Shown here: one piece after another, positions 37,304 to 58,324 of the stretch
Numbering within the stretch: position 1 is the stretch's first letter
Layout of the letters: each line of letters begins with the position of its first letter
IMG/VR virus record: IMGVR_UViG_3300002350_000001
Source of the DNA: a virus
Length of the DNA: 64,000 nucleotides
Direction: 5' to 3' (one strand)
Position numbers and translations under genes: made by a program
The notes under the pieces: generated by a model
Told to the model about the DNA's origin: nothing
Databases searched by the model: none
Seen by the model: only the letters and a program-made list of their open reading frames with translations

Positions 37304-37939
37304 TTACAAGACTTTTACAAGTACTTGCTGTCTATTCAATCCCATATACTTATATTCAATATTATGTTCTTGAACAAACTCTTTCCATGCTTTAAATTGA
37401 TGTTCTCTCCAATTTGGATACCCGAAATATTCACCAAATAAAATAACAGTTCCAGAATTAATTCGCTCTGGCCCTGATGCATTAAGAATAGCACTTGTTG
37501 ATTCATAGGTATCAGAATCTATATGTAGATATGCAAATTCCCCTGGATTTTCTTCTAGCCATCCAGGAAGAGATTCATCAAACCATCCTTTTACAAAAGT
37601 TACATTTGGCTCTAGGTGTTCAATTTTATCTACCGCAAATGATCCTGCCTGCCATTCATAACCTTCCCAGTCTACTTTTAAACCTTCCATTGAATCAAAG
37701 GCGTATACAGTTTTATCTGGGACCTTCTTTGAAATATAGTTAACAGAGTTTCCTTGCCATACGCCAAATTCTGCAATGTGTCCTTCTTTAGAAATTATCT
37801 CTAGTGAATAGTCCCACATTCTTTGCTTGCTTTCATCAAACATTATTATGGCTCTTGGCATTTTTTCTTTTGCATAGTTTGCAGAGTCAATTAAAGACTC
37901 TTCAAATAGTACATGCGCTACTCGTCTCATAATAAACAT
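37304..37939 (-). CDS. Class I SAM-dependent methyltransferase, TylF/MycF-like (211 aa)
   Basis: AEFGVWQGNS, YAFDSMEGL, VKGWFDESL, LHIDSDTYES. GEY replaces the usual DEY. Confidence 0.8.
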   Translation of the reverse strand: MFIMRRVAHVLFEESLIDSANYAKEKMPRAIIMFDESKQRMWDYSLEIISKEGHIAEFGVWQGNSVNYISKKVPDKTVYAFDSMEGLKVDWEGYEWQAGSFAVDKIEHLEPNVTFVKGWFDESLPGWLEENPGEFAYLHIDSDTYESTSAILNASGPERINSGTVILFGEYFGYPNWREHQFKAWKEFVQEHNIEYKYMGLNRQQVLVKVL

Positions 37940-37969
37940 ATATTCTCCTTTTTTAAAATTATATCATAT

Positions 37970-38698
37970 TTATGGTTTCTGATGATCTGGAAAGTCATTT
38001 CCATACACATCCTTGCCTAAAAAATAAAAGCGATTTACATGATTTTTTAATGTTGGCTCTACATCTTTTCTAAAATTACTAAAGTCTTTTATAGACTGTT
38101 TTTCCTCATCAACCGTGTTTTTATCAAAAATATCACTAGCATTTTTTAAATCAAAGCTATCTGGAAAATATCTTTGAACAGGCATTATCGCAGCAATCGG
38201 TGCACCCTTTTTATATTTAACAGTTAGGTCTGGTATCTGTACCTTTATATTAATAGTAAAGTTATGTCTTAGGTTATCTGTTTCTATTGATCCAGACATT
38301 ACCGTTGAATTTGGAATTATATAGTTTGGTGGATTTATTGTCATTAGATTGATACCAGGAGGTGTTCTTAAGACAAATGGTAGGCCTACTGTAAATATAC
38401 CGCTTCCAAAATGAGAATCAACACTTATCTTGCTGTTGTCGCTATATCCATCTCTTTCTATGACTAAATCTTCTATTGAGTCCCCACCATTCCATGTTAC
38501 AGAAAAATCGTAATCGACTGCAACCAGAAAACCGTATTGATTTGCTATAGTTAAAGGAAGACATCTATAGAAGTGTGGTGTAAACCAAGATCTTTTCTTG
38601 TCTGGTTTAAAGATAATATCGCTATAGTCAACATTATCACCTTGATTTGGTATCAAAGCTATAGTATTGTCTGGAACTTTTTTATTTTTATTTATCAT
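37970..38698 (-). CDS. Uncharacterised dUTPase-fold-like protein, DUF6065-like, paralog 2 of 5
   Basis: FYRCLPLTIANQYGF, LRTPPG, MSGSIETD, KKGAPIAAIMP. Confidence 0.6.
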   Translation of the reverse strand: MINKNKKVPDNTIALIPNQGDNVDYSDIIFKPDKKRSWFTPHFYRCLPLTIANQYGFLVAVDYDFSVTWNGGDSIEDLVIERDGYSDNSKISVDSHFGSGIFTVGLPFVLRTPPGINLMTINPPNYIIPNSTVMSGSIETDNLRHNFTINIKVQIPDLTVKYKKGAPIAAIMPVQRYFPDSFDLKNASDIFDKNTVDEEKQSIKDFSNFRKDVEPTLKNHVNRFYFLGKDVYGNDFPDHQKP

Positions 38699-38741
38699 AG
38701 TACCCTTCAAAAAATTATATCATATGATGTATAATCTATAT

Positions 38742-39548
38742 GTGGGTAAACAATATTTCTTCTTAGCTGGCTTGTTTCGTTCAGGTAATACTTTGTTGTC
38801 TAGTATATTAAATCAAAATCCTAATATATATAGCAGCCCGATTAGTGTTGTTTCAGAAATACTTTGGCAAACGCACCTTATCAAAAATTCACAACATTAT
38901 AAAATGAACAAAGATAAAAGCCAGCTTGACAACTTTGCTAGATCAGTTATGGATGTATATTATAAAGATATAGATAAACCAATAATAATTGATAGAGAAA
39001 AGGGTTGGGCTACCCCGCCAAATTTATCTTTAATAAAAAAATATATAACGCCTACACCTAAAATAATTTATACTACTAGGCCAACGCTTGAAGTGATTGC
39101 ATCTTTAATTAAGACTGGGCGTGATGTTTATCTTGATTCAATGCATAGCTCTAACTATATATATAAAAACTATTTATCAGAAAACGATAATTTAGCAGAT
39201 TTTATAATGTCAAATGAAGGAGTTATGAATAATGCATTTAGTGCAATTAATTCAATAAATGACCCAGAAAATGCTGGTGTGTTTTATGTGGTTGATTACC
39301 ATGATTTAGTTAATACCCCCGAAAAAGTTATTGATGGTTTATATGATTTTTTAGAAATTGAAAAATTTAATCATGATTTTAATAATATAAAAACCTTAGA
39401 AGTTTATGATGACTCTAGTGCAGGACTTTACGAAAACTTACATAAGATTAGAGAATTGCTGTCGTTAAGCGATACGGATCCACAAAGTTATTTTTCAGAA
39501 TATATAATTAATAAATATAAAAACTATAATCTATCTACTTTTATTTAA
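38742..39548 (+). CDS. Sulfotransferase family protein (about 268 aa)
   Basis: PAPS-loop FFLAGLFRSGNTLLSSILNQNP; KIIYTTRP..EVIASL; YHDLVNTPE. TATAAT plus 6 nt supports the GTG start at 38742. Confidence 0.8.
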   Translation: MGKQYFFLAGLFRSGNTLLSSILNQNPNIYSSPISVVSEILWQTHLIKNSQHYKMNKDKSQLDNFARSVMDVYYKDIDKPIIIDREKGWATPPNLSLIKKYITPTPKIIYTTRPTLEVIASLIKTGRDVYLDSMHSSNYIYKNYLSENDNLADFIMSNEGVMNNAFSAINSINDPENAGVFYVVDYHDLVNTPEKVIDGLYDFLEIEKFNHDFNNIKTLEVYDDSSAGLYENLHKIRELLSLSDTDPQSYFSEYIINKYKNYNLSTFI

Positions 39549-40254
39549 AGTGTTTTTTTGTCCAAAACTTTTTTACATAATTATTAACTAGTGTTCCTTT
39601 AACATACTTGTCAATAATTATAGGCAGCTCGCCTTCTTTTAAAAATGAAAAAGAAGATTCCCAGTCATCACGTTTAAATGGGATCAGCTGTATCATTGGT
39701 GTCCCTTGTTCTACCACACCCTCAAACCCTTCTTTTACAAATACAGGTGGAGAAAGTGGATGTTTTGTTGAATCATAATCAATTATTGCAGACATACACC
39801 TAAAAGGTGAGTTTGGATATCCTACAGGTGGAATTACTAATAAAGAGTATCCTTTTGGAAGTTGTGGTATCCATGGATTTAGATATTTAAATTGTTGAAA
39901 TGAATATCCGTCAGGAATGTCTATATCTTGGTTTCCATGTAAATCAAATACTGGTTTATTTACTCTCCAATTTATTGACAAGTTTCCTTCTGTATTTTCA
40001 ACTGTTACCCCCGCCCATAGAGGAATTATATATCCAGATGTTAATAGATCTAGCATTGGTGTGCATTTTTTAAAAGTTGCATTAGACTCTTGATTACGTA
40101 TAACTATCTTCTTGCCGTCGGGGTTTTCAGGCATTCTTGCATAAGGATCTGCATTCTTCCACCAGGAAGGTAGGTATTGCGATGTTGGAACTGGTCTTGG
40201 AGCGACCTCATAGTGATATTCGCTTAAAGCTACAAATTCAATTTCTTTTGTCAT
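39541..40254 (-). CDS. Uncharacterised dUTPase-fold-like protein, paralog 3 of 5 (237 aa)
   Basis: LPSWWK, TFKKCTPMLD..TSGY, PKGYSL, AIIDYD, GTPMIQLIPFKRDDW. Confidence 0.65.
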   Translation of the reverse strand: MTKEIEFVALSEYHYEVAPRPVPTSQYLPSWWKNADPYARMPENPDGKKIVIRNQESNATFKKCTPMLDLLTSGYIIPLWAGVTVENTEGNLSINWRVNKPVFDLHGNQDIDIPDGYSFQQFKYLNPWIPQLPKGYSLLVIPPVGYPNSPFRCMSAIIDYDSTKHPLSPPVFVKEGFEGVVEQGTPMIQLIPFKRDDWESSFSFLKEGELPIIIDKYVKGTLVNNYVKKFWTKKHFK

Positions 40255-40782: not shown

Positions 40783-40956
40783 TTACTTACCCGCTCTCTT
40801 AGCAACGATAGCCTCTATCTGTGCTAGTTGTTCTGGTGTAGCGTTGCGAAACGCTTTCACACTTTCTCTAATCCATGGTGACTTAGCCATAGCCTTCTCA
40901 TGCTCTATTGCATAGCGAGCCTGTTGTTCTTGACGTATTCTGTTTAGTGTATCCAT
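40783..40956 (-). CDS. Early helical micro-protein (57 aa)
   Basis: AGAAAGG RBS; MDTLNRIRQEQQARY...; first gene after the leftward promoters. Confidence 0.65.
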   Translation of the reverse strand: MDTLNRIRQEQQARYAIEHEKAMAKSPWIRESVKAFRNATPEQLAQIEAIVAKRAGK

Positions 40957-41219
40957 TTAATGGGCTACCTTTCTTTAGTTTGTATAGGACTATCCTATAC
41001 TAGGGGACTGACAAATTGGGGTCTTATTTGCTTAGGCTCACTGTGATTTGCATCACATTTATTTGCTAAGGCTCATACCTTTTTTGTCACTATTTAATTT
41101 TGATAGGAGTATCCTAACACATACCCCGCCAAAAGTCAAGTCCTAACACGGCGTGTCGCATGTGATTTAGACCACATAATCTCCCCCCGCAGTCGGGCGT
41201 GTCGTTTTGTCGAAAAAAG

Positions 41220-41244
41220 TTATCCACAGGGGTGATGTGGATAA
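41220..41244. promoter_or_regulatory. Inverted pair of perfect DnaA boxes
   Basis: TTATCCACA (41220-41228) - 7 nt - TGTGGATAA (41236-41244). Confidence 0.65.
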
Positions 41245-41359
41245 GTCATGTGACCCTTATCACAAAAATAGTTTTGCGACACTCCCGAGAAACGGGCTAA
41301 TTTGTCAGTGGTCTATGTTAGGATACATAGTATAAAGATAAAAAAGAAAGGAGAACCAA

Positions 41360-41584
41360 ATGTTCTCACTAAAGTATAAAGTAGAGTATAACTCTAATCC
41401 TAACTACCCTCTATCAAAAGAGTTTGGTAATGTATCTATAACAGTACCTAGCGAACAATACGCTAATGACTACTTAGACCTAGTATCTCAGAAAGGTACT
41501 ATCCTAGAAGTTTCTCTAACAGAGTTAGAAAACTACACACCTAGCAAGCGCATGGTGTACGCTACTACTAGAAGTTGGGAGTAA
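41360..41584 (+). CDS. Early hypothetical protein (74 aa)
   Basis: GAAAGGAG RBS; first gene after promoter 41296. Confidence 0.7.
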   Translation: MFSLKYKVEYNSNPNYPLSKEFGNVSITVPSEQYANDYLDLVSQKGTILEVSLTELENYTPSKRMVYATTRSWE

Positions 41585-41588
41585 TCTA

Positions 41589-41696
41589 ATGGATAAAGTT
41601 AGAAACCTAGAATTAGAAAACTATCTTGATGAACCTCAAGATGAATTAGCAACAAGGTTAGATAACCTAATCAAGAAAGGAGTGTACACTAAATGA
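41589..41696 (+). CDS. Micro-ORF (35 aa)
   Basis: MDKVRNLELENYLDEPQDELATRLDNLIKKGVYTK; translated manually. Confidence 0.55.
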   Translation: MDKVRNLELENYLDEPQDELATRLDNLIKKGVYTK

Positions 41697-41839
41697 AAAA
41701 AAATGTACTAATTAGTTTCGTTACTGATGCAGAAACAGATCTGCAAGCAATCTTTGCACTAAACAGAATAATGGAGAAGCTCCCTGAATCTGATTTAGAA
41801 AAGTTTGAAGCATTTGAAGTTTTAGATGCTGTTCAATAA
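41693..41839 (+). CDS. Micro-ORF (48 aa)
   Basis: GAAAGGAG RBS; ATGA overlap with the upstream gene. Confidence 0.6.
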   Translation: MKKNVLISFVTDAETDLQAIFALNRIMEKLPESDLEKFEAFEVLDAVQ

Positions 41840-42094
41840 ATAAGTTTTTGCGGAAATAAAACACCGCAAAAATTTTCGACAAAATGTGGGGCAAATCACA
41901 ATATCTCATCGGCGTGTCGCCTTGACTTTTTGGGGTTTCTCGTGTAGTATTCTACCTATACAATTAAATAAATAGCAAAAAAGGTGTGACGCAATTCACA
42001 TTCAAAATGTCCTAAATGTCCGAATTTAGATTTGATTTTGTCAGCCAAAAATGCTAGACTTACAGAGTAACAAACTAAAGAAAGGTGACAACTA

Positions 42095-42295
42095 ATGTCA
42101 GCAAACATCTACACAATAGAAAGCCTACTCGTAGGAAAAACTTATCGCTCAAAAACCTTAACGGGTGAAATTGTTTCAGCAGAAAAACACCCTTCCCCTG
42201 TATGGTATGAGAACGCAGAGGCGTATCTCGTAGAGGTTAGAAATCAAAATGGCGGTTATGCTTATCGCACTCTCGCAGTATCAACAGAAAACTAA
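42095..42295 (+). CDS. Small beta-barrel (SH3/KOW-like) early protein (66 aa)
   Basis: LVGKTYRSKTLTGEI; related to 45479 and 46251; GAAAGGTG RBS. Confidence 0.65.
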   Translation: MSANIYTIESLLVGKTYRSKTLTGEIVSAEKHPSPVWYENAEAYLVEVRNQNGGYAYRTLAVSTEN

Positions 42296-42309
42296 GAAAG
42301 GAAAACTAA

Positions 42310-42453
42310 ATGACACTAGAGGAATTTAGACAGTATCAACAAGCCCAATACGCAAAACAGCGTGAGGCTAATAAAGAAAAAATCAACGCTATGTTTCATA
42401 GTAACTCTCGCCCATTAAATAATTCACACCTACTAAAGAAAGCAGAAAACTAA
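42310..42453 (+). CDS. Micro-ORF (47 aa)
   Basis: GAAAGGA RBS; MTLEEFRQYQQAQYAKQRE... Confidence 0.6.
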   Translation: MTLEEFRQYQQAQYAKQREANKEKINAMFHSNSRPLNNSHLLKKAEN

Positions 42454-42455
42454 AA

Positions 42456-42713
42456 ATGACTAACACTACTTACACAGACTTCCCATTCACCGCTAAGGGA
42501 ATCAACTTTGTTTCAAGAGTTTATTCTAACTCTCCATTCCTTTCACGCATTCAGCAATTGCCAGCAGGCGTATTTGAAAGCATGAACATTGACGCAGTTT
42601 CAGATTTGCTAACTATTGAAAAAGAATACACCCTAGATGAGGTTCAAGCAGAACTAGACCGAGTCAATGCAGGCGGAAGCCATGCGTTTATTTTGTTAGG
42701 AGAAAACAACTAA
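42456..42713 (+). CDS. Early hypothetical protein (85 aa)
   Basis: ORF within the operon. Confidence 0.65.
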   Translation: MTNTTYTDFPFTAKGINFVSRVYSNSPFLSRIQQLPAGVFESMNIDAVSDLLTIEKEYTLDEVQAELDRVNAGGSHAFILLGENN

Positions 42714-42904
42714 TGATGACACGAAAAGACTATGTAAAAACTTCAAACATTCTAAAGGGTTTTTCTGATGAAATTCATCCAGCAGTTTTTGAGGATTTGG
42801 TTGAGGAGTTTTGTCAATACTTTGCAAGCGATAATGAAAACTTTGATAAAGTAAGATTTGAAAAGGCTTGCGGTGTTGATGAGTTAGGATTGATGCTAGC
42901 ATGA
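42713..42904 (+). CDS. Early hypothetical protein (63 aa)
   Basis: MMTRKDYVKTSNIL...F..DNENFD..RF.KAC; coupled to the upstream gene. Confidence 0.7.
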   Translation: MMTRKDYVKTSNILKGFSDEIHPAVFEDLVEEFCQYFASDNENFDKVRFEKACGVDELGLMLA

Positions 42905-42999
42905 ATAGATTTATAACTTCCCTTGTTCAAATTCTTTTGTGGTTTCCAGTTATTCTTATTTTAGTATTTGCATACAGAGAACGCAAAAAGCAAAAGTAA
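42901..42999 (+). CDS. Single-TM micro-protein (32 aa)
   Basis: MNRFITSLVQILLWFPVILILVFAYRERKKQK. Confidence 0.55.
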   Translation: MNRFITSLVQILLWFPVILILVFAYRERKKQK

Positions 43000-43003
43000 A
43001 AAA

Positions 43004-43031
43004 AGATCCTAAGCATGATTTAAAACTGCTT
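43004..43031 (+). ncRNA. Repeated H-type pseudoknot element, copy 1
   Basis: P1 AGATC/GATTT, P2 AAGCA/TGCTT; 5 nt after a stop codon. Confidence 0.7.
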
Positions 43032-43181
43032 GAAGCTTCAACTAAAATTTTCGACCCCCGCAGTCGGGCGTGTCGCTTTACGTACGATGTGATTTTTACC
43101 ACAATTTTGAGCGGCGTGTCGTTTTGATTTTGTCGGTGATAAATGATAGGATTACAGAGTAATTAAATGAAAGGAAAACTA

Positions 43182-43346
43182 ATGAGTGAGTTTATTTTAA
43201 TTAAGTCAGTATGCGGAGAAAAGGGTTCTTTCGTAGATGTCTATGATTTAGACCTTAACCCTCATGGAGTTGTTTGTTGTGATAATTGTCGCAGCATTGT
43301 GGCTACTCGTGAAAATTGGTTTGCCGAACACGGCGTGTCGGTTTGA
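43182..43346 (+). CDS. Cys-containing micro-protein (54 aa)
   Basis: GAAAGGA RBS; C...CCDNC; the stop codon lies inside the next promoter's -35. Confidence 0.6.
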   Translation: MSEFILIKSVCGEKGSFVDVYDLDLNPHGVVCCDNCRSIVATRENWFAEHGVSV

Positions 43347-43399
43347 TTTTGTCAGACCACTATGGTAAGTTTGCAGTATTGAAAGAAAGGAAATGAAAA

Positions 43400-43600
43400 A
43401 TGGATAGAATAGAATACGCAGTAGAAAGAATTCACAATTGTGATGAGTGTGGAGGAACGGGCTCTCAGTTTTGGGCTAATGGTGAAGACTATGACTTTGA
43501 GACTTGTGAGGAGTGTAATCCTCACGAACTAATCTTTGACTATGATGGAAATGTAGTTTGGGATAACGGAACGCTATTTACAACACAGGAGGCTAACTAA
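43400..43600 (+). CDS. Zn-finger protein, CxxCxGxG...CxxC (66 aa)
   Basis: CDECGGTG...CEEC; GAAAGGA RBS. Confidence 0.7.
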   Translation: MDRIEYAVERIHNCDECGGTGSQFWANGEDYDFETCEECNPHELIFDYDGNVVWDNGTLFTTQEAN

Positions 43601-43601
43601 A

Positions 43602-43895
43602 ATGGGAAGTAATTTTGCTAATGATTTAGTTACGCTTGGAGATTTGGGTATTGTCTTAGACATTGAAAGTCAGATAGGTATGCACCTTCAGGCTAATCAT
43701 TATCCACCTGTTCCCAAGTCTATGGTCAAGCCTTGTGTTGAGGCTATTGATGCAGTAAATGATTTAGGACTATGGAATTTGGACATTGAGTTGCCTGAAG
43801 GTATCTCATGGCGTGGTTTGACTACCGCCCCCGCTTCGGCTATTATTGAAGCACACCACTTAGACGCTTGGATTATTGAACGAGAGGAATACTAA
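43602..43895 (+). CDS. Early hypothetical protein (97 aa)
   Basis: HLQANHYPPVP...AIIEAHHLDAW; His-rich. Confidence 0.7.
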   Translation: MGSNFANDLVTLGDLGIVLDIESQIGMHLQANHYPPVPKSMVKPCVEAIDAVNDLGLWNLDIELPEGISWRGLTTAPASAIIEAHHLDAWIIEREEY

Positions 43896-43896
43896 A

Positions 43897-44106
43897 ATGG
43901 AATACACTTACTCACTTACTACCTCGTATGACGGGGAACTAGTAAACACCTTGCGAGTATCAGACATGATGGAAGCAGTAGACGCATGGAATAAATGCGT
44001 AGACTATGGAAATGCTAAAGACTATGCTACTTATAACCTATCAGACCCAACAGGTAAAATGTATACAAAAACTTTCTATGCCAATGGCGAAGTAGTTATA
44101 AAATAG
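43897..44106 (+). CDS. Early hypothetical protein (69 aa)
   Basis: GAGGA RBS supports the start at 43897. Confidence 0.65.
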   Translation: MEYTYSLTTSYDGELVNTLRVSDMMEAVDAWNKCVDYGNAKDYATYNLSDPTGKMYTKTFYANGEVVIK

Positions 44107-44113
44107 GTATACA

Positions 44114-44326
44114 ATGAAAACTATGGATTATCGCATGGTTGATGTTCTCAACGCAGACCAATTAGAAGTAAATGATCTAATTGGTGTTGCGGATGAGATT
44201 GTAAAAGTTATTTCAATTGCCCCGCTTTCTGATGGGTTTTCACTTGTAATTGAAAATGAATTTGGTGAAAAAGATTTAATTGAAATTCTTGATGATGAAC
44301 AATTTGAGTTATTTATTTTAGAATAA
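44114..44326 (+). CDS. Early hypothetical protein (70 aa, acidic)
   Basis: ORF within the operon. Confidence 0.6.
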   Translation: MKTMDYRMVDVLNADQLEVNDLIGVADEIVKVISIAPLSDGFSLVIENEFGEKDLIEILDDEQFELFILE

Positions 44327-44418
44327 AAGCTGCAAAAAATTTCGAGGGGCCCGAAATGTCCGAATTGCCCCTTTACGTCCGATTTGATTTTTTCCCCTAT
44401 TTCTGATAAGATTATTCT

Positions 44419-44565
44419 ATGTTTAAGAAATCTAGTGAACAATTACGTCATCTGCAGGAGCTACGCAGATCTAATGCCGCTACCCCTTTACGTAACAAGA
44501 AAAAATACACTAGACAAAGTAACAAAAAAATGTTAGACTTAGAAAGTAAAGAGAGGCCCCAATGA
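44419..44565 (+). CDS. Leaderless basic micro-protein (48 aa)
   Basis: MFKKSSEQLRHLQELRRSNAATPLRNKKKYTRQ...; ATG 6 nt after TAAGAT. Confidence 0.6.
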   Translation: MFKKSSEQLRHLQELRRSNAATPLRNKKKYTRQSNKKMLDLESKERPQ

Positions 44566-45281
44566 AATTAAAACGCTCTAATGATAGGAAAGTTACTAAT
44601 GCTGTATCACCAAATGGAAAAACACCAACAATCGCCAACACTTTTGGATTACCTAGCGGCAAGGCTTACTCATGTCCTGGTGAGACCTCTGTATGCGCTA
44701 AAGTATGCTACGCAGGAAAGCTTGAAAAAGTCTACAAAGGTGTAAGAGATACACTATTACACAATTGGAATTTATTAAAAGACGCAGACCATGACACAAT
44801 GGAAGCATTACTTACAGACATGATTAATGATTTCAAGAAAGACTGTGAAAAACGAGAAGCCCCAATGTTATTTAGAATTCACTGGGATGGCGATTTCTTT
44901 AGTGACGAGTACGCATTCGCATGGAAGCATGTTATCTTAAATAATCCTGATGTTCAATTCTGGGTTTATACACGAGTAGCCTCTGCTGCCAATATGTTAA
45001 AAGATATAGATAACCTATCTCTCTATTTCTCAACAGATAGTGAGAATAAAGAAGTTGCTATTAGTCTTAATAAAGATAAGGGAATTCGTTTAGCATACCT
45101 TGCCGATACCTTCGCAATTGGGCAGGCAGATCTAAAGGCAATGATAGGCAAGCCTGGCGCTAAGTGCCCTGAAAATAAAAAAGCAATTCCGTTAATTGAC
45201 AAAGAGGGCTCTGCCTGTGTAAAATGTTCTCTGTGTGTCTATAATAAGGCGGACATAGTATTCTCTGCTAAAAAGCGGTAG
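44562..45281 (+). CDS. GP88-like protein with a Cys cluster (239 aa)
   Basis: SCPGETSVCAKVCYA, FRIHWDGDFF, FWVYTR, CP...CVKCSLC. Confidence 0.7.
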   Translation: MKLKRSNDRKVTNAVSPNGKTPTIANTFGLPSGKAYSCPGETSVCAKVCYAGKLEKVYKGVRDTLLHNWNLLKDADHDTMEALLTDMINDFKKDCEKREAPMLFRIHWDGDFFSDEYAFAWKHVILNNPDVQFWVYTRVASAANMLKDIDNLSLYFSTDSENKEVAISLNKDKGIRLAYLADTFAIGQADLKAMIGKPGAKCPENKKAIPLIDKEGSACVKCSLCVYNKADIVFSAKKR

Positions 45282-45478
45282 AGATAAACAGAAAGGCAAA
45301 ACTAGTGGAACTAATAATCCTATTAGGCATAGCCCTGCTAGCAACACTAATAATGGCTGGGGGGAAGTGATTTACCTCACAAATCTCAAATAATGAGATT
45401 TTTAGGGAAAATAACTTGACAAAGCCAAAAATAAATGAAATAATAAATACCATAACCAACAACAAAGGAGAAATACAA

Positions 45479-45643
45479 ATGACAGTATCAGTATCAACTT
45501 ACAAGGTCGGCGACACTTACACTTCACAGAAGTCAAAGGTCACAGGCGTTATCAAGGAAATCGTACCAACAGACAAGAACACAGTTCGTGTCAAACTTGA
45601 TGTAGAAGGTCAGACACGCTGGACAACTTGGAAAGCAAACTAA
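45479..45643 (+). CDS. Small beta-barrel (SH3/KOW-like) early protein (54 aa)
   Basis: AAAGGAG RBS; YKVGDTYTSQKSKVTGVIKEIVP. Confidence 0.7.
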   Translation: MTVSVSTYKVGDTYTSQKSKVTGVIKEIVPTDKNTVRVKLDVEGQTRWTTWKAN

Positions 45644-45664
45644 TTCCTAACAAAAAACAGGAAA

Positions 45665-45693
45665 AGTCCTGAGCATGACTACTAAAACTGCTC
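45665..45693 (+). ncRNA. Pseudoknot element, copy 2
   Basis: P1 AGTC/GACT, P2 GAGCA/TGCTC. Confidence 0.75.
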
Positions 45694-45766
45694 AATTTGA
45701 TTTCTTATCTAATAAATGTTAGACTAGATACCCCCAACAAAACACCAACAGAAAGGTAATACATAA

Positions 45767-46189
45767 ATGGCACGACAGAAAGCAATTAGCGTAAAAATCG
45801 CAACACCAAAGGTAATCAAGGCACTAGAAACTCGTCTAGCAGAACTAGAAAAGAACTATGCCTCACAAGAAGCCAACGAAGCAAAGCATGAAAAGGCTAT
45901 GGAGAAGTGGCGCAAGGAAGTAGCAAAGTTCGCTATGGCTAATTTTGCTAAGGCAGAAAACTTCCGCACAAACTATCGCTCATGGAACAAGACACTCAAT
46001 GTTGATTTTGATTTAACAGTTAGTGAAACAGACTTTCCTAAAGAGCCTGAGAAGGACTACGAAGTTCTACACCGCCACTCATACAATGAGATGAAAGAGG
46101 AGTTATCTAACGCTATCCGTATTCTCAAGATGACAGATGAGGAAGTAGTTTCTACTTCTACTTACAACGCTATCGCCCGATACTTGTAA
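45767..46189 (+). CDS. Early hypothetical protein (140 aa)
   Basis: GAAAGG RBS; own promoter. Confidence 0.75.
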   Translation: MARQKAISVKIATPKVIKALETRLAELEKNYASQEANEAKHEKAMEKWRKEVAKFAMANFAKAENFRTNYRSWNKTLNVDFDLTVSETDFPKEPEKDYEVLHRHSYNEMKEELSNAIRILKMTDEEVVSTSTYNAIARYL

Positions 46190-46195
46190 AATTAC

Positions 46196-46222
46196 TTTCC
46201 TGAGCATGAAATAAAACTGCTC
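46196..46222 (+). ncRNA. Pseudoknot element, copy 3
   Basis: P1 TTTC/GAAA, P2 GAGCA/TGCTC. Confidence 0.75.
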
Positions 46223-46250
46223 AACACCCCAACTAAGAAAGGAAAATAAA

Positions 46251-46418
46251 ATGACACTAGGCGGATACACTTACCAAATTGGTGATTTATTTACAACAAG
46301 CAAGACAGGCGTTACAGGACGAATTGAAAAGTTTGTTCCACAAAGTAAAAATGTAACTCGTGTAATGTTGCGCTTAGCAAACGGACAACAGCGTTTTGCT
46401 ATGGTAAAAACCTACTAA
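46251..46418 (+). CDS. Small beta-barrel (SH3/KOW-like) early protein (55 aa)
   Basis: GAAAGGA RBS; YQIGDLFTTSKTGVTGRIEKFVPQSKNVTRV; paralog of 45479; not in the ORF track. Confidence 0.7.
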   Translation: MTLGGYTYQIGDLFTTSKTGVTGRIEKFVPQSKNVTRVMLRLANGQQRFAMVKTY

Positions 46419-46423
46419 TAAAA

Positions 46424-46451
46424 TTATCCTGAGCATGATAAAAAACTGCTC
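46424..46451 (+). ncRNA. Pseudoknot element, copy 4
   Basis: P1 TTATC/GATAA, P2 GAGCA/TGCTC. Confidence 0.75.
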
Positions 46452-46563
46452 AAAAAATTTTCGAGAAAATGTGACCAAGATCACACAGCAGCTTTACGGG
46501 GGATTTGTATTTTTTCCATATTTCTGCTAGACTTGGTATATACCCAAAGAAAGGATGCCCCTA

Positions 46564-46827
46564 ATGATATCAACCGCATTAGCAATACAAGACGCAACAA
46601 AAGAAGCAATTCACGACGAGGATGTTATGGACATGGCTCGCTCTATTTATCTAAGCAGACATGAAGTTTCTGAGGATGAGTTTATCAGAATGATGTACAT
46701 TTATTCTGCTCATTTGTCTGCTATGACTGCTACTCTAGTTACTCATGCTTGCTTGACTGAAAGCCAACTAAATGATATGCTAGAAACAATAAAAGAAATG
46801 GAAGCCCTAGGAAAGGATATAGAATAA
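46564..46827 (+). CDS. Early helical hypothetical protein (87 aa)
   Basis: GAAAGGA RBS. Confidence 0.7.
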   Translation: MISTALAIQDATKEAIHDEDVMDMARSIYLSRHEVSEDEFIRMMYIYSAHLSAMTATLVTHACLTESQLNDMLETIKEMEALGKDIE

Positions 46828-47237
46828 TGGAAGAAACAAATACACACTACATGACACGAGAGTTTCTTGAAACTACCCTTGTACAAAACAAGGAGCGCAT
46901 TCAGCAACTTGAAGAGCACATACAGACAGTAACTCAGCGCTCATATGGTGAGGCTGCAGAGCGTAACCGTATGCGTAATGAAATGCAAGAATGGACCTTA
47001 GAAAACTTAAGCGACGGTACCATTTCAGAAGGTTCTGCAGAAGAGATTGCAAGCATTTGCGGTTTTGAGTTAACAAATGAATTTGAATTAGAGGTTACAG
47101 TTCAATATTCAGTTACAGTTAATGCTCGTGATGAAGAATCAGCAATTAATTTAATTCATGATATTGATTTTGATTCAGTGTCATATCCTGAAGGTGTTAC
47201 ATATCTATCATCCACTGTTGACAGAATAGATTTGTGA
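46827..47237 (+). CDS. Early hypothetical protein, coiled coil plus beta domain (136 aa)
   Basis: Coupled ORF. Confidence 0.7.
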   Translation: MEETNTHYMTREFLETTLVQNKERIQQLEEHIQTVTQRSYGEAAERNRMRNEMQEWTLENLSDGTISEGSAEEIASICGFELTNEFELEVTVQYSVTVNARDEESAINLIHDIDFDSVSYPEGVTYLSSTVDRIDL

Positions 47238-47250
47238 TAGGGGGCTATCC

Positions 47251-47279
47251 AAGGACCTGAGCACGTCTTTAAACTGCTT
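47251..47279 (+). ncRNA. Pseudoknot element, copy 5
   Basis: P1 AAGGAC/GTCTTT, P2 GAGCA/TGCTT. Confidence 0.7.
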
Positions 47280-47350
47280 TCGCCAGGCTGATTAGGGCGA
47301 TCATAGAAATACTATAGAGCTAGTTCATTGGGGGACTAAAAGAACCCATA

Positions 47351-47377
47351 CTACCTGAGCATGTAGGAAAAAGGCTC
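47351..47377 (+). ncRNA. Pseudoknot element, copy 6
   Basis: P1 CTAC/GTAG, P2 GAGC/GCTC. Confidence 0.7.
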
Positions 47378-47512
47378 AAAAAATTTTCGACCCGCTGTGA
47401 TTTTGATCACATTTACGATGGTGTCCGATTTTTCCCAATTTCTAATAACCCTATTTGACTTTGTCAGTCCTGTCTGCTAAGATTGATTCATATCAAGAAA
47501 GGATATTAATAA

Positions 47513-48529
47513 ATGGCACATGAACTAGAAACCCAAAATGGCGTTGCCTCATTCGCATCATTCCGTGAACCTGCTTGGCATGGTTTAGGAACTGTATTCA
47601 CAGAAGAAAAAACAACAACAGAAATGTTGTCTGCTGCTAATCTATCTAATTGGAATGTTCGTCTTGAAGACGTAAATATTCCATCTCACTTATCATCAGA
47701 TAAGAATTACCAATATGTTGTTCGTACTAATCCTACTGACAATTCCCAGACAGACATTTTAGGTGTTGTCGGTGAGCGTTACCATGTTTTGCAGAATGAG
47801 GATTTATTCTCATTTGGTGATAACATTCTTGACGGTGGAGGTCGTTGGGAAACTGCTGGCTCTATTCGTGGAGGTCGTGTAGTATTTGGTTCTCTTGCTC
47901 TTGAACGTGAGACAGTACTAGACCCTAGCGGTGTTGCAGATAAGGTAAAAACTTATTTGCTCATTAACACATCACATGATGGCTCAATCGCTATTCAAGC
48001 AAGCATTACACCTGTTCGTGTAGTGTGCGCTAACACTCTCAATCTTGCTTTAGGCTCTAAGCGTGGCAAGAACGCTATCAAGCAATCTTTCAAAATCCGT
48101 CATACTCAGACGGCTAATGGTAAGGTTCAAATTGCTCGTGAGACTTTAGGTCTTGCTAATAAATACATGGACGCTTTTGATGTTATGGCTAAGGCTATGA
48201 TTGAAAAAGAAATCACCGCTGGTCAATTCAATGACATTATTCTTGCTGCTTACCCTAAGCCTGAAAAAGATGCTAAGGGCGCAATCAAGAAGTGGGAAAA
48301 CAAGGTTGATGTTATCAATGACATTTACACAGGCGAATTCAATGGTATGATTGCTAATACCGCTTGGGGTGCTTTCAATGCTCTAACTGAACGCCTTGAT
48401 TGGCACCGCTCTGCTCGTGGTGGGAATAACGAAAGTATTCTTGCTGCTGCTTCTGGTTTTGATGCTACAATTACAGCAGAAAAAAATCGTTTGCTAAAAG
48501 TTGTAAAAGATGTTTTAGCGATAGCGTAA
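47513..48529 (+). CDS. DUF932/DUF945 family phage/plasmid-like protein (338 aa)
   Basis: MAHELE...REPAWHGLG, LGVVGERYHVLQNEDLF, WETAGSIRGGRVVF, NTSHDGS, TPVRVVCANTL, TAWGAFNALTE. Confidence 0.85.
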   Translation: MAHELETQNGVASFASFREPAWHGLGTVFTEEKTTTEMLSAANLSNWNVRLEDVNIPSHLSSDKNYQYVVRTNPTDNSQTDILGVVGERYHVLQNEDLFSFGDNILDGGGRWETAGSIRGGRVVFGSLALERETVLDPSGVADKVKTYLLINTSHDGSIAIQASITPVRVVCANTLNLALGSKRGKNAIKQSFKIRHTQTANGKVQIARETLGLANKYMDAFDVMAKAMIEKEITAGQFNDIILAAYPKPEKDAKGAIKKWENKVDVINDIYTGEFNGMIANTAWGAFNALTERLDWHRSARGGNNESILAAASGFDATITAEKNRLLKVVKDVLAIA

Positions 48530-48540
48530 ATAAATACGCA

Positions 48541-48567
48541 ACTCCTGAGTAAGAGTATAAACTGCTC
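48541..48567 (+). ncRNA. Pseudoknot element, copy 7
   Basis: P1 ACTC/GAGT, P2 GAGTA/TGCTC (U-G wobble); followed by a T-tract. Confidence 0.75.
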
Positions 48568-48700
48568 ACTTTTTTATTTAGATCAAAAGCTGCTAAAAAA
48601 ATTCGAAACCATGATATTTTTTTATATTGTTTAATTACGAACGACTTGCTTTTTTCCCCAGTTTTTGGTATTCTTTATTTACCACAGAAAGGAAAAATAA

Positions 48701-48934
48701 ATGTCTAGTTTTCTAGAAAATGAAAATCAAATGGTTATTGATGCTATCTATCATGAGATTGGAGAAATGCTAGTTGAAGACTGGGTTAACTCCAATTTAG
48801 ATGAAGGGCAGATGTTTGCAGATTTTAGATTTGCAGAGATGTCTGATGATAATTACATTAAGGGTAGATTTAATCTATTCTATGATTTAAAACCAGGGGA
48901 CCAATACTATCTAGAATGGGATGAGGAAGCATAA
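48701..48934 (+). CDS. Acidic early protein (77 aa)
   Basis: GAAAGGA RBS; own promoter. Confidence 0.7.
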   Translation: MSSFLENENQMVIDAIYHEIGEMLVEDWVNSNLDEGQMFADFRFAEMSDDNYIKGRFNLFYDLKPGDQYYLEWDEEA

Positions 48935-49104
48935 TGTTGGGTTATGACTTAGAGGATTTAAACATAATGATGGATTCACTAGCAGAGGTTATTCAGATTG
49001 AAGAATCTTCTCAAACCCCGTCAATTTCTGATAGGAATCTAGGAGGACTTAAAACAAGCTTGTTTTTCTTACAAGGCTTGTGGGCAGAAGGGTATTTTGA
49101 CTGA
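48934..49104 (+). CDS. Micro-ORF (56 aa)
   Basis: MLGYDLEDL...FLQGLWAEGYFD; TAATG overlap with the upstream stop. Confidence 0.6.
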   Translation: MLGYDLEDLNIMMDSLAEVIQIEESSQTPSISDRNLGGLKTSLFFLQGLWAEGYFD

Positions 49105-49206
49105 GGGGCATGTGTCCTAAATCACACCCAAAAGGCTTTACGAACGCTTGACAAAAACCCCCATTTTTTGAGATAATTGCATTACGACCAACAGAAAGGA
49201 CCCTAA

Positions 49207-55467: not shown

Positions 55468-55586
55468 AAATGCGTCATTAATATGACTTCATTGAAGATT
55501 GGAGGGCGGTAAGAATTGATAACTTCCGTCCTCCACTTCGGTGGATTGCAAATTTAGCTATTATTATCGTCAATTGCTTTATTTAA
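55458..55586 (+). pseudogene. Possible gene remnant with an internal TAA, cut at the end of the opposing GT gene
   Basis: Frame VEIKMRH*YDFIEDWRAVRIDNFRPPLRWIAN then runs into the antisense of the GT stop at 55554. Confidence 0.35.
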
Positions 55587-56357
55587 TACTGCAAAATCAA
55601 CAAATGATCCAGTAAACAACATACTTCCCATATGCTGTAGTTTTACCCAAGGCATTAACCAAGTTTTATATCCAATTTTATTTGCCCAACGTGTAAAGAA
55701 ATAGTCCTCTGACAAATATGTATTGTCAATTTCATCAATCTTACAATCAAAATAAGCAAACATAGGTTCTTCAGTTTTTGCATTTACATATCTTTGCTCT
55801 GGGTATGCTTCGTAAAACTTTTCAAATACTTCTCTTGCAATGAGCATAAATCCAGTACTGCCATCTTTAATTTCTACTGGGTTGGTTAATGATATTTCTC
55901 TTTTTTCACCATAAAAATTAATACCGTATCTACCAGAATATTTCATATAATCAGATTCTTGTTTAATTAGTCCAAGATCTTTTGCTTTTTGTATTCTGTC
56001 CCATACAATTGTTTTATGTGGATATGGTCCAACAATTATCTGCTTGTCATCGTTTGTAGCAGCAAGATATACAGCATGTATAAAATCAATATAATCAAAA
56101 GAGATATCGCCATCAATAAAAAATAGATAGTCGTAGTCACTATCTAAAAATTGTTTAACAATTTCGTTTCTTCCACGAGCAATCAGTGACTCTGAAGTTA
56201 TATATGTCATTCCTAGCTTTATATTTTCTTTAGCACAAAAAATAGAAAGCCTCATCATTGACTCAAAATAATTGGCAAAGCTCATACCGCCATACATTGG
56301 AGTACCAACCATGACGGATTTTCCTCTAACTACATTTAAATCTATATTGTTATCCAT
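55554..56357 (-). CDS. GT-A fold glycosyltransferase (267 aa)
   Basis: VGTPMYGG, ESLIARGRN, YLFFIDGDI (DxD), GSTGFMLIAREVFE, YLSEDYFF. Confidence 0.8.
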   Translation of the reverse strand: MDNNIDLNVVRGKSVMVGTPMYGGMSFANYFESMMRLSIFCAKENIKLGMTYITSESLIARGRNEIVKQFLDSDYDYLFFIDGDISFDYIDFIHAVYLAATNDDKQIIVGPYPHKTIVWDRIQKAKDLGLIKQESDYMKYSGRYGINFYGEKREISLTNPVEIKDGSTGFMLIAREVFEKFYEAYPEQRYVNAKTEEPMFAYFDCKIDEIDNTYLSEDYFFTRWANKIGYKTWLMPWVKLQHMGSMLFTGSFVDFAVLNKAIDDNNS

Positions 56358-56422
56358 AATTCCCCTTTCCTAAATTATACACCATAGTTGCACTATTTGA
56401 TGTTTTCTGATATCATGTATGT

Positions 56423-56551
56423 ATGGCTGAGGTATCTTTTAATATTACAAAAATAGGTCACGAAGTGGTATTTTGTACCCTTTGTTTTGCCATGGTACCG
56501 TCAGACAAGCAGTCAAATCATGTTCGTTGGCACGATAGGATGAAAGAATAA
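56423..56551 (+). CDS. C2H2-like micro-protein (42 aa)
   Basis: CTLC...HVRWH; leaderless promoter. Confidence 0.55.
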   Translation: MAEVSFNITKIGHEVVFCTLCFAMVPSDKQSNHVRWHDRMKE

Positions 56552-56787
56552 TGGCATACGTTATAACAGATGCATGTAATGATATTAAAGATAAATCTTG
56601 TATTGATGAATGCCCTGTAAATTGTATTTATGAAGGAGATCAACAGCTTTTCATAAACCCAGATGACTGTATAGATTGCGGTGCTTGTGAGCCTGTTTGT
56701 CCAGTTAATGCAATATATTATCAAGATGATTTACCACAAAACAAAAAAATATTTATAGAAATTAATAAAAATTTCTTTAATAACTAG
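56551..56787 (+). CDS. fdxA: 7Fe-type ferredoxin (78 aa)
   Basis: YVITDAC.DIKDKSCIDECPVNCIYEG...INPDDCIDCGACEPVCPVNAIY. Confidence 0.9.
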   Translation: MAYVITDACNDIKDKSCIDECPVNCIYEGDQQLFINPDDCIDCGACEPVCPVNAIYYQDDLPQNKKIFIEINKNFFNN

Positions 56788-56797
56788 GGAATTGGTT

Positions 56798-57502
56798 ATG
56801 TCAAAAAAAATTATTTTTAAAGCAATGGATGAAGAAGGTTTTAATATTCAGGATAGACCATATCCAGCATCCAAAGCTATTCCAGAATGGTGGAAAAATC
56901 ATAGCATATATGATAATGGCTCAAACAAGCTTGAATTGATTAACAGAACTCCAAACTTTTCTTTTAAAAAATGTACTCCAATGCTAGATGCATTAACGTC
57001 TGGCTATATAATACCCTTACACGCAGATGTATTAGTTTCAAGACAAGAAGACAGAGTTTTTCTATCTTGGAAAACAGAAAAAGATATTTTTCAACTACAT
57101 GGTCAATCATCACATAATGTAGAAGCACCACCTGGATATAGTAATTTAGTTTTTAAATATTTAAATACTTGGATTCCAATTACTCCAAAGGGTTATTCTG
57201 TATTAATTACAAGTCCATTTGGATATAGAAATTTGCCAATGATGGCTATACCAGCTATAATTGACTCAGATAGATCTTTATTAGACATGGCAAACCCTAT
57301 GTGGATTAAAGATGATTTTGAAGGCATTATAGAGAAAGGAACTCCATTGATACAAGTTACTCCATTTAAAAGAGATGATTGGGAAGCCTCTTTTGAGCAC
57401 TTTAAAAAAGATGAATGGAAAACTCATACTGAAAAGAACTTTTCAGCAAACATAGTAGGACACTATATTAAGAATATTTGGTCAAAAAAAAACTATAAGT
57501 AG
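56798..57502 (+). CDS. Uncharacterised dUTPase-fold-like protein, paralog 4 of 5
   Basis: IPEWWK, SFKKCTPMLDALTSGY, TPKGYS, AIIDSD, GTPLIQVTPFKRDDW. Confidence 0.65.
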   Translation: MSKKIIFKAMDEEGFNIQDRPYPASKAIPEWWKNHSIYDNGSNKLELINRTPNFSFKKCTPMLDALTSGYIIPLHADVLVSRQEDRVFLSWKTEKDIFQLHGQSSHNVEAPPGYSNLVFKYLNTWIPITPKGYSVLITSPFGYRNLPMMAIPAIIDSDRSLLDMANPMWIKDDFEGIIEKGTPLIQVTPFKRDDWEASFEHFKKDEWKTHTEKNFSANIVGHYIKNIWSKKNYK

Positions 57503-57510
57503 GGGTAAAA

Positions 57511-57675
57511 ATGAAAACAATTAAGTATATCTTCAAACACCTTAAAATGTTTTTAAAGCAAAAAAGATGTAGTCATGAAAGTGTTGATATGTCATCATGT
57601 CCATTTACTGGAATGACATATAAAACATGCAATGCCTGCTGGAAAAGAATCTCTGCTACAAAAACAAACGATTAA
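57511..57675 (+). CDS. Cys-rich micro-protein (54 aa)
   Basis: CSH...SSCPFTGMTYKTCNACWKR. Confidence 0.55.
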   Translation: MKTIKYIFKHLKMFLKQKRCSHESVDMSSCPFTGMTYKTCNACWKRISATKTND

Positions 57676-57681
57676 GAACTT

Positions 57682-57758
57682 GCAGCAATAGCTCAGTTGG
57701 TTAGAGCCCCCGACTCATAATCGGGTCGTCGTAGGTTCAAGTCCTACTTGCTGCACCA
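57682..57758 (+). tRNA. tRNA with CAT anticodon, probably Ile2 (lysidine type)
   Basis: GCAGCAA acceptor; arm CCCGA-CTCATAA-TCGGG; TTCAAGT T-loop; encoded CCA. The CGACTCATAATCG arm is typical of Ile2 rather than Met. Confidence 0.85.
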
Positions 57759-57759
57759 A

Positions 57760-57830
57760 GGGATTGAAGCATTAAAGTGATGCTCAGGACTTTTAATCCT
57801 GAGAAGAAGGAGCATTACCTTCCAGTCCTA
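57760..57830 (+). tRNA. tRNA-Lys(UUU) with an atypical T-loop
   Basis: GGGATTG/CAGTCCT acceptor; CAGGA-CTTTTAA-TCCTG; T arm GAAGG-AGCATTA-CCTTC. Confidence 0.75.
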
Positions 57831-57831
57831 C

Positions 57832-57905
57832 GCATCTGTAACTCAGTTGGTTAGAGTACCTGCCTTATATGCAGAGAGCCGTAGGTTCAAGTCCTACCAG
57901 ATGTA
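57832..57905 (+). tRNA. tRNA-Ile(UAU)
   Basis: GCATCTG/CAGATGT; CTGC-CTTATAT-GCAG; GTAGG-TTCAAGT-CCTAC. Confidence 0.85.
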
Positions 57906-57909
57906 CGAT

Positions 57910-57981
57910 ACCTCTGTAACTCAGCGGAAGAGTAACGGACTTCTAATCCGTAAGTCGTAGGTTCGATCCCTACCAGGGGTG
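57910..57981 (+). tRNA. tRNA-Arg(UCU)
   Basis: ACCTCTG/CAGGGGT; ACGGA-CTTCTAA-TCCGT; TTCGATC T-loop. Confidence 0.88.
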
Positions 57982-58002
57982 CTACAATTAATATTCATTT
58001 TA

Positions 58003-58076
58003 GGTCTGTTAGCTCAGTTGGTTAGAGCGCTACCCTGTCACGGTAGAGGTCGTGGGTTCAAGTCCCATACAGATCG
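58003..58076 (+). tRNA. tRNA-Asp(GUC)
   Basis: GGTCTGT/ACAGATC; CTACC-CTGTCAC-GGTAG. Confidence 0.9.
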
Positions 58077-58081
58077 CATAA

Positions 58082-58156
58082 GGCACTATCGTCTATCGGT
58101 TAGGACATCGCCCTTTCACGGCGGAAAGACGGGTTCGATTCCCGTTAGTGCTGCCA
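58082..58156 (+). tRNA. tRNA-Glu(UUC)
   Basis: GGCACTA/TAGTGCT; CGCC-CTTTCAC-GGCG; encoded CCA. Confidence 0.9.
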
Positions 58157-58172
58157 ATGATATAATAAATAA

Positions 58173-58322
58173 ATGTCAATAGAAGAAGATATTAAAAACG
58201 TTTTATTTCAAATTGGTAAAGACATTAAAATACATAAAATAGACTCTCAAAATTCAATCATTGAAATAGACTATGATAAATACGTTAATGCTATAATTGA
58301 TCTTATAAACAAAAAGGGGTAA
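58173..58322 (+). CDS. Micro-ORF (49 aa)
   Basis: Leaderless TGATATAAT plus 6 nt; MSIEEDIKNVLFQIGKD... Confidence 0.55.
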   Translation: MSIEEDIKNVLFQIGKDIKIHKIDSQNSIIEIDYDKYVNAIIDLINKKG

Positions 58323-58324
58323 TC

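Follow-up and report, generated by a model that had tools for sequence, protein, structure and literature searches.

CRP-Type Palindromes at Helically Phased Positions Upstream of Predicted Early Promoters in a Family of Freshwater Actinophages

In the early region of the IMG/VR virus record IMGVR_UViG_3300002350_000001, most of the promoters carry a palindrome of the type bound by the cyclic AMP (cAMP) receptor protein, CRP, upstream of the -35 element and on the same face of the helix, which suggests that a dimeric regulator tunes the start of infection. This regulator is probably, if unproven, the cAMP-receptor-type protein of the host. The DNA analysed here (the window) is a stretch of 64,000 nucleotides, corresponding to bases 3247-67246 of a record of 107,731 base pairs (bp) that is rated complete by CheckV; positions are those of the window. 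The boxes, which have the form TGTGA-N6-TCACA, are real and selected CRP-type palindromes confined to early control regions. Freshwater actinobacteria are among the most abundant bacteria of lakes, and regulation in their phages is almost unstudied.

Boxes and Promoters in the Phage Genome

Five perfect copies of TGTGA-N6-TCACA were found in the window (starting at 41042, 41249, 41985, 46470, and 47396), compared with 0.10 expected, and none of 100 shuffled sequences reached five. These are the only perfect copies in the whole 107,731-bp genome, which contains 13 boxes with at most one mismatch; 11 of the 13 fall within 8 kb (41042-49126), bearing out the local concentration for which an earlier note on this DNA had proposed a genome-wide scan. 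The count at two mismatches is at chance level, and therefore boxes with at most one mismatch alone carry meaning. Spacing between the arms is strict, with five boxes at N6 and a single one at N7; the other spacings from N0 to N12 gave none. All but one of the 11 boxes are intergenic, the exception being that at 43278 in the 3' part of a small open reading frame (ORF). The ten boxes listed in the earlier note are the five perfect ones together with those at 41161, 41885, 43088, 45366, and 49111, and its span of 40992-49177 runs exactly from the leftmost -10 element (40992) to the rightmost (49177).

Promoters were predicted by a simple scorer of the -35 element, spacer and -10 element, and distances were taken from the box centre to the first base of the -35 element. 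All ten distances of the earlier note were reproduced, and the helical phasing of upstream boxes that it described for both divergent directions holds for the predicted promoters. Eight distances were picked by the scorer unaided. The distances at 41042 (leftward) and 41249 (rightward) rest on a non-canonical -35 element and were assigned by analogy, through the word TTGTCAG, which is typical of the family and directly follows the -35 element, and a TAGGAT -10 element. A generic sigma-70 consensus scan of this AT-rich region gave no enrichment over shuffled sequences (26 found and 23.9 expected), so the promoter calls rest on context, namely intergenic position, a ribosome-binding site and ORF downstream, and conservation in relatives.

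Three boxes lie in a divergent control region of 403 bp (40957-41359) between the leftward genes and the rightward early genes, which also holds an inverted pair of DnaA boxes and two copies of the word GGCGTGTCG. The perfect box TGTGATTTGCATCACA (41042-41057) is placed 29.5 bp from a leftward promoter assigned by analogy, with a weak -35 element (CCCAAT, 41020-41015), TTGTCAG at 41014-41008, and TAGGAT at 40997-40992. The one-mismatch box TGTGATTTAGACCACA (41161-41176) is found at the same distance from a second leftward promoter (TTGACT, 41139-41134; TAGGAT, 41116-41111). The perfect box TGTGACCCTTATCACA (41249-41264) faces rightward, 39.5 bp from a -35 element read as GCTAAT (41296-41301), which is followed by TTGTCAG (41302-41308) and TAGGAT (41319-41324); the alternative chosen here by the scorer is TTGTCA-18-CATAGT at 45.5 bp.

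Further to the right, the -35 and -10 hexamers are separated by 17 bp at all but the last of the boxes. The one-mismatch box TGTGGGGCAAATCACA (41885-41900) is 29.5 bp from TTGACT (41922-41927; TAGTAT, 41945-41950), and the perfect box TGTGACGCAATTCACA (41985-42000) 39.5 bp from TTGATT (42032-42037; TAGACT, 42055-42060). They are followed by the one-mismatch boxes TGTGATTTTTACCACA (43088-43103), 28.5 bp from TTGATT (43124-43129; TAGGAT, 43147-43152), and AGTGATTTACCTCACA (45366-45381), 42.5 bp from TTGACA (45416-45421; AATAAT, 45439-45444, with TG before the -10 element). The perfect box TGTGACCAAGATCACA (46470-46485) is 27.5 bp from TTGTAT (46505-46510; TAGACT, 46528-46533), and the perfect box TGTGATTTTGATCACA (47396-47411) is 51.5 bp from TTGACT (47455-47460; TAAGAT, 47478-47483) in the promoter of the DUF932 gene (47513-48529). 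At the right-hand end, the one-mismatch box TGTGTCCTAAATCACA (49111-49126) is 29.5 bp from TTGACA (49148-49153), with an 18-bp spacer before GATAAT (49172-49177). An additional one-mismatch box, TGTGATAATTGTCGCA (43278-43293), which was not among the ten, lies inside the ORF at 43182-43346, 57.5 bp from TTGATT at 43343 (17-bp spacer, TAAGTT), and its status is doubtful.

Taken over 40957-49206, roughly 10-11 of 14 assignable promoters bear a box, and box-free early promoters were placed at about 43343, 44385, 45690, and 48654. In every assigned promoter, 10 bp or more separate the edge of the box from the -35 element downstream of it, and no box overlaps the core promoter elements. Looping between boxes was also considered and dropped, the box-to-box spacings (119, 88, and 100 bp) having no obvious phasing. 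In four metatranscriptome assemblies from lakes, short contigs of relatives (85-100% identical) cover the genes for proteins of 54 and 140 amino acids (aa), the DUF932 gene, and a further early gene. They give only a hint that the region is expressed in nature, as they do not show starts or strands and could reflect DNA carry-over.

Boxes Across the Phage Family

The genome has a GC content of about 36%, and the portal, protease, and capsid genes are phage-like. The nearest cultured kin by protein are large Streptomyces phages of clusters BE and BK in the family Stanwilliamsviridae, with identities of 45-47% for the portal, 53% for the DUF932 protein, and 41-47% for WhiB. Kinship is at the protein level only, as megablast and a blastn search with the region found no DNA-level relative among 50,697 phage records. 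Because the phage encodes a WhiB protein (a match above the Pfam cut-off), its host is actinobacterial. DNA of the phage was present in lake and freshwater metagenomes (24 runs, 2016-2024), and relatives of its DUF932 gene occur on at least 425 IMG/VR contigs; thus, the phage stands for a low-GC family of freshwater actinophages that is abundant but uncultured.

A family set of 80 related loci, covering 1.13 Mb around the DUF932 gene, contains 334 perfect and 318 one-mismatch boxes, of which 261 and 249, respectively, are unique. In five near-complete relatives (101-117 kb), every perfect box (1-9 in each) falls in a single stretch of 10-14 kb, and the reversed-pattern control gave none. Moreover, a blind scan of all IMG/VR contigs with ATGTGANNTANNTCACAT returned 80 loci, and all those with at least three boxes proved to be relatives of this phage. 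Some of these box-rich relatives are distant (51-54% identity of the DUF932 protein), indicating that the association between box and early region is old within the lineage and that the specificity has not drifted. An alignment of the DNA that precedes the DUF932 gene in 59 distinct relatives revealed a patchwork of short modules, in which the box is present in many relatives and other modules take its place elsewhere; no single box is indispensable.

Site Signature and Helical Phasing

In the 261 unique perfect boxes, the arms are fixed, and the N6 spacer and the flanks are nearly without information. After the arms were symmetrised, the base following TGTGA was found to be T more often than G and G more often than C, with A in 4%, and the central position was A or T, with G in 2%. 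This A/T centre agrees with the published GlxR consensus, TGTGANNTANNTCACA. Among the 249 unique one-mismatch sites, 204 mismatches fall at arm positions 1 and 5 and 45 at positions 2-4 (the GTG core, at about the level of chance sites). Such a profile of tolerance is that of CRP-family sites, and, as read from sequence, spacing, and tolerance, the predicted element is a CRP box. The same 16-bp palindrome, with a strict N6, a GTG/CAC core, and an A/T centre, is found in class I CRP promoters and in the Crp/GlxR sites of Mycobacterium tuberculosis (Rv3676) and Corynebacterium glutamicum (GlxR).

In plain counting of k-mers, AT-rich words drowned out any repeated motif. A profile of the flanks in fixed register revealed no conserved flanks, a flatness due to the variation in box-promoter distance, and an analysis of distances was therefore made. 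A strong promoter-like site, with its -35 element starting 6.5-54.5 bp from the centre, accompanies 71% of the 261 boxes, compared with 12% of random positions and 12% of lone TGTGA half-sites in the same loci. The distances in the related loci peak at 18.5, 29.5 (with 27.5 and 28.5), 39.5/40.5, and 49.5/50.5 bp, and, counted from the start of the box, the exact word TTGAC is most frequent at +37 and its complement at -26, which is 29.5 bp in both directions.

Since these loci are related, the segments from box to -10 element were clustered at 70% identity, leaving 76 clusters within 60 bp. The peaks were kept, and the Rayleigh test was maximal at a period of 10-10.25 bp (p ~3e-8). The vector length R was 0.72 for the boxes, compared with 0.05 at random anchors and 0.22 at lone half-sites. 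Within one distance class, the intervening sequences differ between clusters, so that a single duplicated cassette cannot explain four phased classes. These results bear on the possibility that the boxes serve another host dimeric regulator or a DNA-bending protein, or that they are functionless passengers of duplicated promoter cassettes. The early region does consist of shuffled short modules (AAAATTTTCGA, the box, CTTTACG, GGCGTGTCG, and TTGTCAG), and the phase offset is unlike that of Escherichia coli CRP. However, the arms are conserved as spacers and flanks diverge, the same box recurs in unrelated flank contexts, and the phasing outlasts clustering; these readings are very unlikely. No other regulator of actinobacteria is known to us to have exactly this site.

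With the first -35 base provisionally set at -35, the box centres are located at about -53.5, -64.5, -74.5, and -84.5. The predicted promoters thus resemble class I promoters in having upstream centres that differ by whole helical turns. Class I CRP sites of E. coli are centred at -61.5, -71.5, and -82.5, placing the first -35 base at 26.5, 36.5, and 47.5 bp, compared with 29.5, 39.5, and 49.5 bp in the phages. The E. coli positions are accordingly not reproduced: the phage boxes occupy one helix face, but one that is rotated by ~3 bp (roughly 100 degrees), in line with the 2-4 bp further upstream given in the earlier note. In addition, the 18.5-bp class (about -53.5), common in the relatives, is lacking in E. 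coli class I promoters, and a position of this kind, between class I and class II, is to our knowledge unused by E. coli CRP.

The Regulator That May Bind the Boxes

The geometry of the boxes points to an upstream activator acting from one face of the helix. Under the proposed mechanism, they would be candidate high-affinity sites for a dimeric helix-turn-helix (HTH) regulator with CRP-type specificity, which would sit upstream of sigma-A-type early promoters on the same face as RNA polymerase and, as a class I activator does, would modulate, most likely stimulate, their activity. The likeliest binder would be the Crp/GlxR orthologue of the host, which would be present already at DNA entry, and the early programme would then be coupled to the cAMP/Crp state of the host. 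Protein binding to the boxes, the activating effect, and host Crp as the protein are all three things that we infer, and activation of the early promoters by host Crp is given slightly less than an even chance.

Several observations are consistent with a host factor. The box-bearing promoters look like those transcribed first, and a factor for the first promoters must already exist in the cell. In the phage, no match to HTH_Crp_2 was detected even at E <= 1, and no convincing sigma factor was found. None of the 50 proteins of the window has a Pfam DNA-binding domain, though small ORFs of unassigned function could hide one. DnaA boxes, the sites of another host protein, share control regions with the boxes both here and in relatives.

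The host side was sampled through 201 genomes of Actinomycetota, four of them unpublished (G009, G056, G096, and G128), which enter the aggregate counts but support no individual claim. A Crp-family HTH was found in 163 of these genomes, including 16 of the 18 that bear a rhodopsin, as aquatic photoheterotrophs do. Roughly 450 perfect boxes occur across the 201 genomes, about eight-fold more than the 57 of the reversed control. Among PDB entries, the Crp of one rhodopsin-bearing genome (L223; 1.8 Mb, 53% GC) best matches CRP of M. tuberculosis (3D0S, 3MZH, and 3I54; E 1e-34) and GlxR, and its recognition helix reads GASRERVNKA, as compared with GASRETVNKA in M. tuberculosis. In that organism, CRP is associated with activation at upstream sites and with repression at sites close to the transcription start, and the top sites in chromatin immunoprecipitation include those at -62.5 and -69.5 (PMC4117774).

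Attempts to identify the host of the phage met only with dead ends. A scan for the WhiB of the phage family returned only short, phage-like contigs (L088-L091, 33-39% GC) in public metagenome-assembled genomes labelled as the unrelated Saccharibacteria, Acidimicrobiaceae, and Chitinophaga pinensis, which are most likely phage contamination of the bins. Five genomes of 1.3-1.5 Mb were considered as acI and, having no rhodopsin, were not equated with it. One small genome with a strong Crp-family match (G013) has an FNR-like E--SR helix and 56% GC and was thus uninformative. Searches of the literature yielded no report on Crp in Nanopelagicales or Planktophila.

A number of findings weigh against host Crp as the activator. 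No Crp-family HTH (E <= 1e-8) was detected in 38 of the 201 genomes, mostly the smallest ones (1.3-2.2 Mb), comparable in size to the actinobacteria that dominate lakes. The smallest of all (~1.3-1.5 Mb) contain 0-2 perfect boxes, near the control, so that streamlined hosts give no sign of a matching regulon. The perfect palindromes (5-9 per phage) look more like dedicated operators, host-regulated CRP sites being rarely perfect. The phase is ~3 bp further upstream than in E. coli class I promoters, and the frequent 18.5-bp class is without parallel in E. coli. At most box promoters, the -35 and -10 hexamers are already good, and an activator is therefore not obviously needed. Finally, the distant relative Jay2Jay, a Streptomyces phage, shows no enrichment of boxes (four sites and four in the control at <=1 mismatch).

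Several of these points would be expected if the boxes were operators for a dimeric regulator of unrecognised fold, either encoded by the phage or delivered in the virion, that would be made from a box-free early promoter and would then boost or time the box promoters from a constant face of the helix, as p4 of phage phi29 does from its upstream site. Perfect or near-perfect and very dense palindromes are typical of phage operators, and one divergent control region alone holds three. The box-free promoters could make such a factor first, and ~35 early ORFs have no known function. The box-rich loci of the blind scan all belong to this phage lineage, the Streptomyces relative has no boxes, and many small actinobacterial genomes lack both Crp and boxes. 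On the other hand, no cognate protein was found, there being neither a DNA-binding domain in the 50 window proteins nor a Crp-like HTH in the phage. Phage-encoded pairs of operator and repressor usually diversify, yet the specificity is unchanged across relatives with only ~52% identity of the DUF932 protein. The sequence, spacing, and tolerance of the site are those of the CRP family, and the sites do not cover the core promoters but precede them. A factor of the phage's own making is thus a doubtful explanation, though one to be taken seriously.

It is also conceivable that host Crp binds the boxes mainly to be titrated, the boxes serving as decoys that would draw Crp away from the promoters of the host, or that binding brings repression or insulation. 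With ~2 perfect boxes per sampled genome compared with 5-9 within 10 kb per phage, the sites on replicated phage DNA would exceed those of the host by orders of magnitude, and the core elements are already strong at most box promoters. However, a pure decoy needs neither promoter proximity nor phasing, yet 71% of the boxes are within 55 bp of a promoter at a phase of ~10.2 bp, and the rest of the genome is without boxes although decoys would work equally well there. Titration or repression as the main role is therefore unlikely. The proposal in the earlier note that a host cAMP/CRP-type sensor of nutrient status gates the early programme is thus supported in part: the boxes stand as real, selected, phased, and conserved in the family, whereas host Crp would be the likeliest binder and cAMP or nutrient status a possible gate.

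Comparison with Known Systems

The closest known mechanism is class I CRP activation: like class I CRP promoters, the phage promoters have their sites upstream of the -35 element at steps of one helical turn. The phage sites differ in being mostly perfect palindromes and ~800 times denser than those of the sampled actinobacterial genomes. The closest biological precedent for a CRP-family regulator in phages is NtcA, which reads GTA-N8-TAC, typically in place of the -35 element and thus in a class II-like position. T4-like cyanophages carry 1-16 sites for this regulator per genome (Sullivan et al. 2010; PMC3037559). These are likewise lytic phages with many sites for a CRP-family nutrient regulator, for which a coupling to host physiology was proposed. 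However, the NtcA sites are spread over diverse genes, whereas those described here are confined to the early region and phased upstream of an intact -35 element.

Short repeated palindromes in an early control region, including a divergent pair of promoters, are also known from the p4 sites of phi29 and from OR and OL of lambda, where contact with RNA polymerase allows an activator to work from a constant upstream face. In contrast to these systems, no phage DNA-binding protein was found here, the core promoter is not overlapped, at least 10 promoters are involved over 8 kb, and the specificity is constant among divergent relatives.

Control Region and Neighbouring Elements

The divergent control region is bordered on the left by an ORF of 57 aa (40783-40956), for which the protein atlas gave no match, followed by DUF6065 paralogues and a methyltransferase. 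These make up an operon on the minus strand (37304-40254), with the paralogues at 37970-38710 and 39541-40254, the second recognised by structure and feature search only, and a TylF-like methyltransferase. Elsewhere, DUF6065 is fused to 2OG-Fe(II) oxygenase or JmjC domains, and this operon may be a DNA-modification or anti-restriction module.

Within the control region, the perfect DnaA boxes TTATCCACA and TGTGGATAA are inverted (41220-41228 and 41236-41244), and the pair ends 5 bp before the box at 41249. Eight DnaA boxes occur in the genome, three of them (52767, 52788, and 52800) in an ORF-free stretch near 52.8 kb, and relatives L039-L042 and L108 have tandem TTATCCACA right beside a box. 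The word GGCGTGTCG has six copies, all on the plus strand and within 2.2 kb (41150, 41196, 41911, 43067, 43113, and 43332). The copies at 41911, 43113, and 43332 end 2 nt upstream of a -35 element, and CCCCGCAGTCGG precedes the word twice; in relatives, it is common next to boxes in both orientations.

A second palindrome, TCTCA-N5-TGAGA (45384-45398), is located between the box at 45366 and its -35 element, and relatives of the 49.5-bp class have GAGCGTCTCA...TGAGA at the same place; it may be the site of a second factor. The element CCTGAGCATGA-N7-9-CTGCTCA was observed after the stop codons of early genes (45667-45695, 46198-46226, and 46427-46455, and near 43009, 47257, 47354, 48543, and 54167). 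It sometimes has no promoter after it and is conserved upstream of the DUF932 gene in nearly all relatives. Another word, AAATGTCCGA(A/T)TT, is repeated upstream of promoters (42005-42025 and 44353-44364) and is nearly invariant in relatives ~45-60 bp before the -35 element of the DUF932 promoter; it may be what is left of a tandem promoter, or another protein may bind it.

Beyond the early region, a cluster at 55554-62295 contains glycosyltransferases, an FkbM-type methyltransferase, two MobA-like nucleotidyltransferases, a ferredoxin, a single-stranded DNA-binding protein, and five tRNA genes (57682-58156), and may be a cassette for the modification of sugars or DNA. The WhiB gene, with an orthologue in the Streptomyces BE and BK phages, is on the minus strand at genome coordinates 72438-72611 (~69.2 kb on the scale of the window and just beyond it). 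Downstream of it is a gene for a fusion protein of 253 aa that joins an adenylylsulfate-kinase-like P-loop domain to a nucleotidyltransferase-like domain.

Significance

In a limited search of the literature, no report of Crp/GlxR-type boxes on actinophage promoters was found. The broadest interpretation, offered tentatively, is that a single CRP-type reader governs nearly all of the early programme in an abundant family of lake actinophages, by way of perfect palindromes that are phased at ~10.2 bp, lie ~3 bp off the E. coli rule, and include a -53.5 class. Conceivable, if rather doubtful, is that this reader is a hitherto unknown phage-borne regulator mimicking CRP specificity, or that it is the Crp of a streamlined freshwater actinobacterium whose largest set of high-affinity targets is in the phage and not in the cell, in which case infection would both sense and drain cAMP/Crp.

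Either way, the family provides ~260 natural pairs of box and promoter at four phased distances, a ready-made spacing series that could show how actinobacterial RNA polymerase is activated from upstream and could supply compact regulated promoters for use in low-GC actinobacteria. Should the binder be encoded by the phage, it would be a new regulator with CRP-like specificity. If the boxes are sites for host Crp, infection would be coupled to the nutrient and cAMP status of the host, which would provide a testable link between the carbon supply of lakes and viral lysis, in parallel to NtcA in cyanophages.

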